DNA of 63,959 nt, counting the filler, from Malassezia furfur (lineage: Eukaryota): the NCBI GenBank assembly GCA_052055015.1. It is 3 parts of 3 records of this genome, joined end to end, with 100 filler letters (N's around TTAATTAATTAA, not from the genome) between each part and the next. Parts side by side here need not be neighbours in the genome. Positions count along the whole stretch, not along the records: positions 1 to 25,481 come from JBQJIT010000136.1; 2 more parts are not named here. The stretch is one strand, 5' to 3'. Below the pieces are notes generated by a model, which was not told the DNA's origin, made no database searches, and saw only the letters and a program-made list of their open reading frames with translations. Position 1 is the first letter of the stretch. The number at the start of each line of letters is the position of its first letter. The translations under genes were made by a program, and so were the position numbers. Of the stretch, positions 3,310-8,013 are shown piece after piece.

Positions 3310-6300
3310 TCACACCTTGGCATCTTGACCACGGCGCAGCTTCAGGCGACGCGCTGGCCAGCCACCGTACACAGCCCAGCTCTCGGTGATCTCACCCGAG
3401 GCAACCAGCGTGTGTTCCAGGAGCATCGAGTGCGGCTCCATGCTCGCACCCGACAAGAGACGACTGCCCGTGCGCATCGCACATGCATCGCCAATGCGCA
3501 GACGGTTCAGGCTAAACTGACCACGCGAGTTGATGTGTGCCACGACCGAGCAGTCGTCGAGCGAGACACGGTCGCCCATCGTGACCAGGTCCGGCTCGGT
3601 GAGCTGCAGCGAGGGCTTGCCGCCCGCCCAGATGGCGCAGTCCTTGCCGATGCGCGCGCCGAGCGCGCGGAGGTACCATACCACAAACGGCGTGCCCGAG
3701 ATGTTTTGCATAATATGTCCACCGTACCCCTGCATCGTGGGCTTCTGCAGGACCAGATGCAGCTGCCAGCGCTGGCAGTAGCTGCTCATGTCCCAGTTGT
3801 AGCGACCCTCGCGACGGCGCCCGATAACGGCCCACTTGGTGCCAATCACCCAGCAGATCGCAATGAACGCCTGACCCGGTAGGATCACCACAAAGAAGAC
3901 GGAAATCGCAAAGTAGATAAGCGCGGGGCGGTACCAGTGGTCCATAAACACCCAGTCGGAGCGCTGATCGTACGCGTCAAAGATGCGGTGCAGGCCCACC
4001 ACGGTCGCGGCAAAGCCGCCGGCCCAGTACGCGGCCGTGATCGCCTGCGAGAAGACGTGGATGGCGACAATCATAATGTAGGGGAACACGAAGAAGTTGG
4101 CCTCGCGCTTGTAGTAGGCGCGGCCGAACGGCGTAATCGTGCTGTCCTCGTTCATGTCCTCATCCTCGGCCGGCGCCTGCGACTTGCCAAAGCTGACCGC
4201 CTCGCCGTTCTTTTGGCCCATCCACACCGAGCGCTCCTCGTAGTTGCCGCCGCGGCGCGACAGCGCACCCGAGCCCATCACGCAGCGCCGGCCGACGGTC
4301 GTGCCGGGCAAAAGCACCACACGGTCCGCAATCATGGCGCCGCGGCCGATGCGCACGGGGTCAAAGCTGATCGAGTCCGAGGTGAACACCTCGGAACGCG
4401 AGCCAAACACGACATCGTCGCCGACCTCGAGCAGCTCGGGGTCGGGGCAGTAGATACCCGAACCCGGCCAGTACACACGCTTGCCGATGCGCGCACCCAT
4501 CGCGCGGTACACCACCGAGGTCATCTCGTAGTGTGTGCCGAGGATCTGGAACGCACTGTTCAGCTTGCGCTGGTTCAGCAGCTGGCCAGTGATCCAGCGG
4601 CGGAGCAGCGCAATCTGCGACGCGTTGCGCATCGAACCGGCGCGGTTGAAGCCGAGCAGACGCTTGACAATGATGCCCACAATCAGGTTGACGAGCGGCG
4701 GGAGCGTCTTGCGCACAATACGCGCAAGGAAGTGGTAGCCGATACGGTGCGGGTACGCGTACCAAGCAATCACACTCTCCAGACTGTCCTGGTTCGCAAA
4801 GTTGAACGGCGTCAGGAGCAGGAGCATCAGCGCAGCAAACCACGGCACGTAGGAGATGATCCACACCAGCACCACGATCGGGTACCCAATAAACCACTTG
4901 ACAAAGAGGTTGGGCTGCGGCGTCGCGTTGCGGTTGTACGCCGCGTACGAGTCCGGCGCGGGCGGCTCGTGCGACGACGACTGCGGACCCCACACGGTGC
5001 CATCGGCGAGACGCGCACCCGGCGAGATTTGCGTGTACGTGTTCACCACACAGTCGCGACCAATCACGATCGGCTCCAGGCGGAAGTAGCCGTCGCGCTC
5101 CACACAGAACCCACGGATGCGGCACGCGTCGATCGACGCGCGGTCGTGGATCGTGATCAGGTCGCACTCGTAGATCTTGGCGTTCGAGTCAATCTTGACA
5201 TCCTTGCCAATCGACATGCCCAAAAGACGGTAGTACGCCTTCTCTAGCCAGGGCGTGACCGCAAACAGGCCACGCCCACCCACGCGGAGCGACTGGTTCA
5301 CGATCCACCAGCGCAGGTGGTAGTTGCTCCACATGGGGTAGCGGCCCGGCCGGTAGCGGCCAATCACCACCCACTTGAACGCAATCGCGGCCGTGGGACA
5401 AATGATACGGCTGCTCAGACGCGCAATCGCGATCGACGAGAGCAGCGCACCCAGACGCTGCCAGGGCGAGTCTTCAATGTAGTACGCAAAGAAGGCCAGG
5501 CCGTGCAGAATAATCGTCCAGGTCCAAGCCGCCTTGAGCGGGTAGAAGAAGAAGAAGGGGATCGCCTGCACAAACAGCACGAGCGGGTGCGTCTGGCTGC
5601 GCGGCTTTTGGCCGTGCGAGGAAAAGGCAGGGTCGTCGTCCACGGCATAGTTGTGCGCAAGGTTGACCGACGACATGAGGCCCGTGCCCTTTTCGTCAAT
5701 CTGGTACATCTGGTCGTCGTCGTCGTCCACGCCCGCCTCGCCGCGCTGCTTGTCAATGAGCGCGGCCATGCGCGACACGGTCGAGTTGGTAAACAGCGAC
5801 GAGACCTCCAGGCTCACGTCCGTCTCCTTGCGGATCAAGAAGATCAGGCGGCCGAGCAACAGACTGTTGCCACCGAGCAGGAAAAAGTCGGACTCGTCCG
5901 TGATCGAACCCGAGTCGAGGTCGAGCAGCTTGGCGATAATGTCGCGCACCAGGATCGAGGTCTGCGACATGGATGCGGCGTTCTGCTCGCGCACAATGCT
6001 CTCCATGGCCTCAAAGTCGTACTGCCCGTTGGTCTTGATCAGCGGCTGGCGGAAGACGTGCAGGGGGTTCGGCACCACATAGCCGTGCAGGATCTGGCCG
6101 AGCGCGCGGTCAATGTCCGCGGCGTCAAAGCCGGCATCCTCCTGCACCTGGATAAACGCCATCGGCGCACGGTCGCGCTGCTGCACAACCGCGGCATCCA
6201 GCACACCGGGAATGCGGTAGCAGGCACGCTGCACGGCGCGCACGTCCACCGTGATGCGCGAGCAGGGAATGGGGCGCGAGAGCGGCGTCTCCTTGCTGGG

Positions 6301-8013: not shown

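Follow-up and report, generated by a model that had tools for sequence, protein, structure and literature searches.

A probable polymalate-synthetase-type membrane enzyme encoded in Malassezia furfur

What does an enzyme make that joins a coenzyme A (CoA) ligase-type activating domain to a carrier and a membrane-embedded, three-fold repeated tail? The question is raised by a single unbroken frame that runs on the minus strand from ATG to stop over 1567 codons (3310-8013) in a 63,959-nucleotide stretch of Malassezia furfur DNA (assembly GCA_052055015.1; the window). A preliminary description had assigned it to a probable Malassezia gene for a polymer synthetase. We found this open reading frame (ORF) to be real, intact and correctly described there. 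Over residues 560-1567 the nearest named relative of its product (P0001) is a Malassezia brasiliensis protein with 96% identity, which bears out the genus, and P0001 is collinear with the proteins of loci L001 and L004, the alignment spanning residue 1 to 1561-1566. We think that P0001 is probably the Malassezia orthologue of an ancient fungal polymalate-synthetase-type enzyme that makes poly(beta-L-malate) at the membrane. The underlying chassis, in which a substrate would be adenylated, loaded and then transferred by a beta-helix domain, we hold with high confidence.

Domain architecture and substrate pocket

Pfam detected AMP-binding at residues 82-407 of P0001 (E-value, E, 2.7e-36), AMP-binding_C at 463-541, PP-binding at 689-753 (E 1.1e-12) and Hexapep; among the 6 families returned at E<=0.1 there was no condensation family and no thioesterase family. 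NCBIfam matched the N-terminal half to acyl-CoA ligase families and found TIGR02353 in three stretches. Sequence motifs comprise MPLFHVGG (244-251), WYYAAPTMHHAIL (288-300), GGNS (714-717), whose Ser717 is kept in 117 of 117 aligned rows, and R-x-L/M-G-x-x-I-G, which occurs three times, near 927, 1169 and 1447. The three C-terminal repeats align with one another (blastp E 4e-15, 4e-05 and 3e-05), and an AlphaFold2 model of residues 800-1567 (predicted local distance difference test, pLDDT, 93.9; predicted template modelling score, pTM, 0.92) shows long helices in three pairs, with short-strand repeats after every pair. Placement of these helices in the membrane is a prediction: five of the six passed a Kyte-Doolittle scan (>=1.6), and the second (850-883) fell under the threshold in P0001, yet passed in both homologues scanned. 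Pfam, the motifs and the repeat alignment thus agree with the order first proposed, namely an adenylation (A) domain, a GGNS carrier (T) and three transmembrane/hexapeptide repeats without a classical condensation (C) or thioesterase domain.

The preliminary description had likened this chassis to that of the polymer synthetase Pls, and had made the likeness of the C-terminal half to Pls terminal domains decisive. In a tblastn search, terminal domains of bacterial Pls and PosA proteins covered about 89% of the C-terminal query with 22-26% identity (best E 2e-35), and these matches, the TIGR02353 stretches and the internal repeats together bear the proposal out. The published PosA model has the same three-fold arrangement, with A-T ahead of three helix pairs and their three beta-helices (in the accessible part of PMC10522769). 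P0001 is nevertheless not a member of the Pls/PosA family. TIGR02353 scored it at 188.3 bits (E 2.2e-55) against a curated cutoff of 423.1, the terminal-domain identity is low, and Pls and PosA carry an amino-acid-activating A domain of the non-ribosomal peptide synthetase (NRPS) kind, whereas P0001 carries a CoA-ligase-type A domain with an extra small subdomain. Acidic positions of Pls/PosA are also neutral or basic in the family of P0001: five that are kept in the Pls/PosA-type set are non-acidic, and nine basic positions are kept in the family only, a charge pattern that leans weakly towards an anionic rather than a cationic chain.

Left-handed beta-helix acyltransferases are homotrimers with a histidine as general base. 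Fold searches with the C-terminal model returned enzymes of this class, led by 3fs8 (Z 13.4, root-mean-square deviation 4.0, 131 aligned residues) and tied with it 3eev, 3ect, 3mqg, 4n69 and 3srt; no solved whole Pls-type terminal domain was among the matches, which is not in itself a sign of novelty. The beta-helix of each repeat has the fold of QdtC (3fs8), maltose O-acetyltransferase (3srt), serine acetyltransferase (4n69) and the polysialic acid O-acetyltransferases 3jqy and 2wlc. P0001 differs in that it fuses three copies in one chain with membrane hairpins and is fed by a carrier rather than by acyl-CoA; identities are only 10-22%, and the matches are to single repeats. H1493, E1473, D1481 and several Trp and Arg positions are common to the family and Pls/PosA. 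H1493 was present in 75 of 76 family rows and in all 14 Pls/PosA-type rows, E1473 in 75 of 76 and 13 of 14, and H1493 was the sole histidine among the 16 polar positions that the two sets have in common. These two residues are a candidate catalytic pair, with H1493 the likely base of a single active site near repeat 3; the alignments are also the basis on which His1493, Glu1473 and, in the A domain, Arg254 are placed in pockets.

For the A domain, the closest solved relatives by sequence were 6qjz, 5ie0 and 8aff (E 1e-49 to 3e-41), and the best fold matches of a predicted model of residues 1-772 (pLDDT 90.1) were 5ie2, 8aff and 5ie3, which are oxalyl-CoA synthetases. Both results support its earlier assignment to the oxalate/acyl-CoA ligase class. 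An A-core profile gave 14 Pls-type controls 0-25 bits, compared with a median of 231 for 77 bacterial ligases. AtAAE3, LsOCS and yeast Pcs60 (5ie0/5ie2/5ie3, 6qjz and 8aff) are thus the nearest solved relatives of this domain, and the His248 gate and Lys541 are kept in P0001, the catalytic Lys541 in 116 of 117 aligned rows. P0001 is nonetheless not an oxalyl-CoA synthetase: those are stand-alone, CoA-using enzymes of ~510-540 aa, whereas here the domain is fused to a carrier and a terminal domain, and the oxalate-specific Ser and His are missing.

The pocket of P0001 is formed by V249, G250, R254, N255, N320-A-A-G323 and C350-M-P352. At 18 of 18 chosen pocket positions it is identical to P0371 of Aureobasidium pullulans and P0421 of A. 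melanogenum, and among 118 family rows 60 are identical and 94 lie within one change. By comparison, 79 bacterial ligases match at 3-6 of the 18 positions, and background identity over residues 196-547 is 193 of 352 (55%). Since the pocket is nearly invariant against both yardsticks, the whole family most likely shares one substrate. It is unlikely to be an amino acid, because Val249 stands where amino-acid-activating domains have an Asp, a position we take to be the one that binds the alpha-amino group in NRPS A domains; the F-D motif is clear in 11 of the 14 Pls-type controls. Oxalate is likewise unlikely. Ser289 and His319 of AtAAE3 are described as specific to oxalyl-CoA synthetases (accessible part of PMC8905533), and in P0001 Ser289 has become Ala322 and His319 is absent (Pro352 or a one-residue gap). 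Beside that S289->A322 change, three more residues are smaller than in the oxalyl-CoA synthetase (H216->G250, C288->A321 and A313->G346).

The preliminary description had overlooked a second small A subdomain (about 584-678), which lies between the first one and the carrier. Its helix and strand order in the 1-772 model equals that of the first subdomain, and Pfam AMP-binding_C matched it at E 0.0038, below cutoff. Against the PDB, all 14 matches of the first subdomain were acyl/aryl-CoA ligase-type or "AMP-binding protein" entries; the second subdomain alone gave nothing significant, with a Cas9 entry on top (E 0.03, judged chance) followed by A-domain and NRPS entries (E 0.18-1.4). With the first-subdomain profile the median score was 63 bits for the 77 bacterial ligases and 2 for the 14 Pls/PosA-type proteins, whereas the second-subdomain profile gave the Pls/PosA-type proteins a median of 21 (one at 0, the region being absent) and the ligases a median of 14 with a maximum of 22. 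The latter profile is only moderately discriminating, and the argument rests on its contrast with the former (2 versus 63). Because of these contrasting profiles, and with the second contrast modest, we infer that the ancestor was an NRPS/Pls-type A-T-terminal-domain protein whose A core was swapped for a whole oxalyl-CoA-ligase-like enzyme, the old small subdomain being left as a relic beside the carrier.

Relation to Aureobasidium polymalate synthetase and age of the family

The polymalate synthetase (PMAS) of A. melanogenum reportedly goes back to Wang et al. 2020. In the accessible parts of later accounts, the enzyme of strain ATCC 62921 (QHD40385.1) is an NRPS with A-like, T and C-like domains, six membrane regions and no thioesterase; its 5049-bp gene is controlled by Crz1, and deletion had no effect on growth (PMC11905612, PMC11286673, PMC9210645). 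These domains, the six membrane regions, the missing thioesterase and a length of ~1680 aa resemble P0001. The A. pullulans protein P0371 aligned with P0001 at 39% identity over 1628 columns with all domains collinear, and P0371 and P0421, the probable PMAS, have the carrier Ser and H1493/E1473 in addition to the pocket residues. Aureobasidium-named rows among the best 120 of 464 all belonged to one lineage, and the Aureobasidium homologue compared here is probably the published PMAS. The preliminary description had credited PMAS with a similar layout only; the layout stands, but the family probably contains PMAS itself, given 39% identity from end to end and a common clade. P0001 differs from P0371 in having neither ~80 N-terminal residues nor a 50-residue insert before repeat 3. 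A further difference is regulatory: calcium/pH control through Crz1, as reported for PMAS, was rejected for the Malassezia gene, since three related Malassezia-like loci do not keep its two short Crz1-type motifs upstream (8504 and 8224), and motifs so short are expected by chance.

The family is broad. A search with residues 560-1567 found 567 proteins at E<=1e-10 among 8000 candidates, and in the best 120 of these identity was 77-96% to Malassezia-like proteins, 67-70% to other smut-group fungi and 49-55% to Agaricomycetes. Against 1.84 billion representatives, the C-terminal half matched 337 at E<=1e-30. Named homologues among 30 proteins looked up came from ascomycetes, chytrids, a mucoromycete, Artemidia and Mesostigma, and the family also occurs in basidiomycetes, protists and one planctomycete bin. 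In bacterial genomes the full layout was found in one of 80 loci kept from at least 583 confirmed, as a 1588-aa Planctomycetota protein (L010), and the remaining loci kept held stand-alone ligases or ligase-carrier fusions.

Terminal-domain and A-domain trees agreed in placing the query with Malassezia, then with smut-group fungi, then with Agaricomycetes. The phylogeny called for in the preliminary description set the family apart from the 14 Pls/PosA-type proteins at 100/100 in a 42-row tree, and made the basidiomycete and ascomycete members sisters (95/100 there; 99 and 96 by the Shimodaira-Hasegawa-like approximate likelihood-ratio test, SH-aLRT, in 80- and 75-row trees). The trees were built under LG+G4 without a mixture model from chosen subsets of 80, 75 and 42 rows, and gave long-branch warnings. 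With its root placed on the Pls/PosA rows, the 42-row tree supports the split between the two families but not its direction, and the trees give no firm order for the deep protist branches. Because the trees follow host groups and the neighbouring genes are housekeeping genes in conserved order, the Malassezia gene fits an old, vertically inherited, unclustered gene. Recent horizontal transfer was rejected, as the GC content at third codon positions (0.82) lies within the neighbours' range of 0.71-0.88 and the trees follow host groups. The malassezial gene is therefore a further copy of an old, widespread fungal membrane enzyme family and is not specific to Malassezia.

Several members of the family stand out. 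The planctomycete protein (L010:4668-9434, plus strand, bin JBCDEM010000040.1) is a full-length member between bacterial-looking genes; it groups with P0198, P0184 and P0200 and retains H1493 and E1473 without H1161 or E1533. Bacterial fusions of an oxalate-ligase-like A domain to a carrier were seen at L023, L041, L051, L064, L019, L057, L022 and L037, and some of them continue into a thioesterase-like region or further NRPS modules; these fusions as a group are candidate oxalyl-loading starter modules. The chytrid proteins P0378, P0379, P0381 and P0382 (Geranomyces, Thoreauomyces) nest among ascomycete members, possibly through transfer or contamination, and other chytrids branch outside Dikarya. 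In P0146 (Verticillium) and P0347 (Kalmusia) the pocket motifs are degenerate or partly missing, and P0146 has lost the catalytic Lys column; decay or gene-model errors are possible causes. Many agaricomycete homologues, P0040, P0057 and P0080 among them, end in a C-terminal RING finger (Pfam zf-C3HC4 at 1576-1613 in P0080), a fusion of a RING to a polymer synthetase. A RING-like pattern occurred in the tail of 30 of the 120 listed best matches, versus 0 of 243 other long homologues.

A number of observations weigh against polymalate as the product or against the equation of the Aureobasidium homologue with PMAS. The 18 pocket positions were picked by alignment rather than from coordinates; a number of them are almost universal, and the rows compared share ancestry. 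Against the charge pattern stand five acidic positions specific to the family and three basic ones specific to Pls, and a register shift of one column may account for two of the swaps. QHD40385.1 was absent from the members listed for two Aureobasidium clusters (15 of 126 and 15 of 52), from the names of the best 120 of 464 rows and from passages of PMC10751350 and PMC9647333; a 5049-bp gene corresponds to 1682 aa, Aureobasidium members have 1685-1690 aa, and none of 16 sequences checked had 1682. In their accessible parts, two reviews place the six membrane regions of PMAS N-terminally, whereas the helices of P0001 follow the carrier, and one review states that the PMAS protein has not been isolated (PMC11905612, PMC11286673, PMC9210645), so that activation of malate by the PMAS A domain itself is inferred from genetics. 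Finally, the accessible parts of the literature (PMC4528779 among the sources) attribute polymalate to few organisms, Aureobasidium, Penicillium cyclopium and Physarum, and the gene is present in very many fungi.

Proposed chemistry and competing explanations

The domain order, Lys541, Ser717, the homology to Pls terminal domains and the Aureobasidium-identical pocket are observed; from them we infer the following chemical steps. The A domain would use ATP to form L-malyl-AMP, and the malyl group would then pass to the phosphopantetheine at Ser717. The three beta-helices may pack as one pseudo-trimer, like the left-handed beta-helix O-acyltransferases, in which His1493, aided by Glu1473, would deprotonate the hydroxyl of malate; its attack on the thioester-bound unit would form an ester. 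Repeated cycles would yield poly(beta-L-malate), and a thioesterase would not be needed. Because the helices come in hairpins, all catalytic parts would lie on one, presumably the cytosolic, face, and the chain may exit within or alongside the bundle of six helices and remain at the cell surface. The earlier proposal of a polymer of a small hydroxy- or dicarboxylic acid thus gains from the layout, the ligase-type A domain and the pocket identical to that of the Aureobasidium member; oxalate is unlikely as the substrate.

The alternative that survives best, although we judge it unlikely, is that activation and loading proceed as above but the beta-helix domain passes malate, or an oligomalate of short length, on to a membrane acceptor such as wall glucan, a glycan or a lipid. 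The conserved function would then be surface acylation, and free Aureobasidium polymalate would be overflow. In keeping with this alternative, the solved structures that come nearest in fold are O- and N-acyltransferases whose substrates are sugars, amino acids and polysialic acid. The gene is also retained in many lineages from which no secreted polymer is known, and it lies in a conserved arrangement of housekeeping genes. A review, as far as its accessible part goes, also describes fungal polymalate as membrane-embedded, slowly released and probably bound covalently to polysaccharide (PMC11905612, PMC11286673, PMC9210645). On the other side, Pls and PosA are true homologues of the terminal domain, have H1493/E1473 in common with it and are self-polymerising (accessible parts of PMC7179176, PMC8506220 and PMC10522769), and no conserved acceptor-related partner gene was seen nearby.

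More doubtful still is a polyester of some other small hydroxy- or dicarboxylic acid (2-hydroxyglutarate, citramalate, tartrate or glycerate), reached by drift of specificity in basidiomycetes. Identity to the Aureobasidium protein is, after all, only 39%, the basidiomycete branch is long and well separated, and the smaller pocket residues relative to oxalyl-CoA synthetase would leave room for a larger acid without naming it. Such drift would, however, have had to spare a pocket that equals that of Aureobasidium at every chosen position and is nearly invariant across the family.

Two further explanations are very improbable, and about equally so. A true Pls/PosA-like synthetase of a cationic amino-acid homopolymer would share the architecture and the terminal-domain matches, but is opposed by a TIGR02353 score far under the cutoff, by Val249 in place of Asp, by the low A-core scores of the controls and by the separate clade. 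A ligase for oxalate or fatty acids that uses CoA, and for which the membrane tail is an accessory, would suit the best A-domain matches and the automatic names of several homologues ("Oxalate--CoA ligase", "peroxisomal-coenzyme A synthetase"), but the oxalate-specific Ser and His are lost, such a ligase would need neither the invariant carrier Ser nor a terminal domain that is conserved and looks catalytic, and the C-terminal tripeptide AKV, for which a peroxisomal signal was considered and rejected, is not conserved among the 8 basidiomycete relatives listed.

Genomic setting and biological meaning

The features of the synthetase gene are collected in Table 1.

Table 1. Positions in the window of the synthetase gene and its parts.
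Feature	Position	Strand	Description
Whole gene	3310..8013	-	1567 aa (P0001): A / second small A subdomain / T / 3x helix-hairpin + beta-helix repeats
Adenylation core, oxalyl-CoA-synthetase-like	6673..7896	-	residues ~40-447; from best solved relatives by sequence and fold, and the pocket table
First small A subdomain, CoA-ligase type	6370..6648	-	residues 456-548, catalytic Lys541; Pfam AMP-binding_C E 1.4e-06
Second, degenerate small A subdomain, NRPS-like	5980..6264	-	residues 584-678; Q664 replaces the catalytic Lys
Carrier (T) domain	5734..5958	-	residues 686-760; phosphopantetheine site Ser717 at 5863-5865; Pfam PP-binding
Acidic linker, not conserved	5599..5733	-	residues 761-805; model confidence low at 764-772
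Repeat 1	4924..5598	-	residues 806-1030; helix hairpin 810-843/850-883, then left-handed beta-helix
Repeat 2	4114..4923	-	residues 1031-1300; hairpin 1036-1066/1088-1120, beta-helix with family-specific H1161, R1206, D1230-R1231
Repeat 3	3334..4113	-	residues 1301-1560; hairpin 1312-1349/1362-1397, beta-helix with E1473 (3595-3597), H1493 (3535-3537)

The order kinase, heparinase-like gene, synthetase gene, RPB6-like gene, zinc finger gene is conserved in loci L001, L003 and L004. A biosynthetic cluster was rejected: four near neighbours and 19 further ORFs were scanned, of which those with a Pfam match are of housekeeping type and four have no match. Directly upstream, 8619-11456 (minus strand) encodes a 945-aa protein with one N-terminal hydrophobic stretch and a heparinase II/III-like C-terminal domain, a polysaccharide-lyase-like surface protein that is syntenic in the same three loci and for which no link to the synthetase was seen. 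Downstream, and syntenic in L001-L004, lie a three-finger C2H2 protein at 156-2081 (minus strand; zinc fingers by Pfam), which we take to resemble PacC/Rim101, and an intron-containing gene at ~2620-3153 (minus strand), presumably RPB6-like. A carnitine acyltransferase (15298-17223, plus strand) and a class 3 lipase (34414-35337, plus strand) are ordinary for a lipid-dependent yeast. The ORFs without a Pfam match at E<=1e-4 (21810-23333, 24228-25529 and 25609-27555 on the plus strand, 59853-60815 on the minus strand) encode 320-648 aa, and some may be shadow frames in GC-rich DNA.

In the open-access literature, to which the search was confined, we found no polymalate-type product in print for Malassezia. 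Five NRPS/secondary-metabolism terms had no occurrence in the main text of a genus-wide Malassezia genomics paper (PMC4634964), the accessible part of PMC13208730 does not mention the family, and that of PMC4528779 yielded no Malassezia polymalate product. Databases already list the gene itself, as a "putative NRPS-like protein"; homologues number in the hundreds and the family is broad, which limits the surprise. It is a known but barely studied kind.

If P0001 does make poly(beta-L-malate), many fungi, those most common on human skin among them, would be capable of polymalate synthesis, which would then be no oddity of Aureobasidium. A compact, intron-free gene with Lys541, Ser717, His1493, Glu1473 and Arg254 offers a means of probing how Pls-type terminal domains make esters rather than amides, and the relic second small subdomain, as a visible trace of a natural A-domain swap, would be useful for the engineering of polyester synthetases. 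More tentatively, Malassezia, along with mushrooms, most smut fungi and numerous ascomycetes, may bear an unrecognised surface polyanion, either polymalate or malyl groups on wall or lipid. Its maker would be a chimeric enzyme that is older than Dikarya and also occurs in protists and a planctomycete. If that were true, such a polymer on skin could bind cations such as calcium, serve as a store for carbon released by lipid breakdown, or shape surface charge and biofilm.

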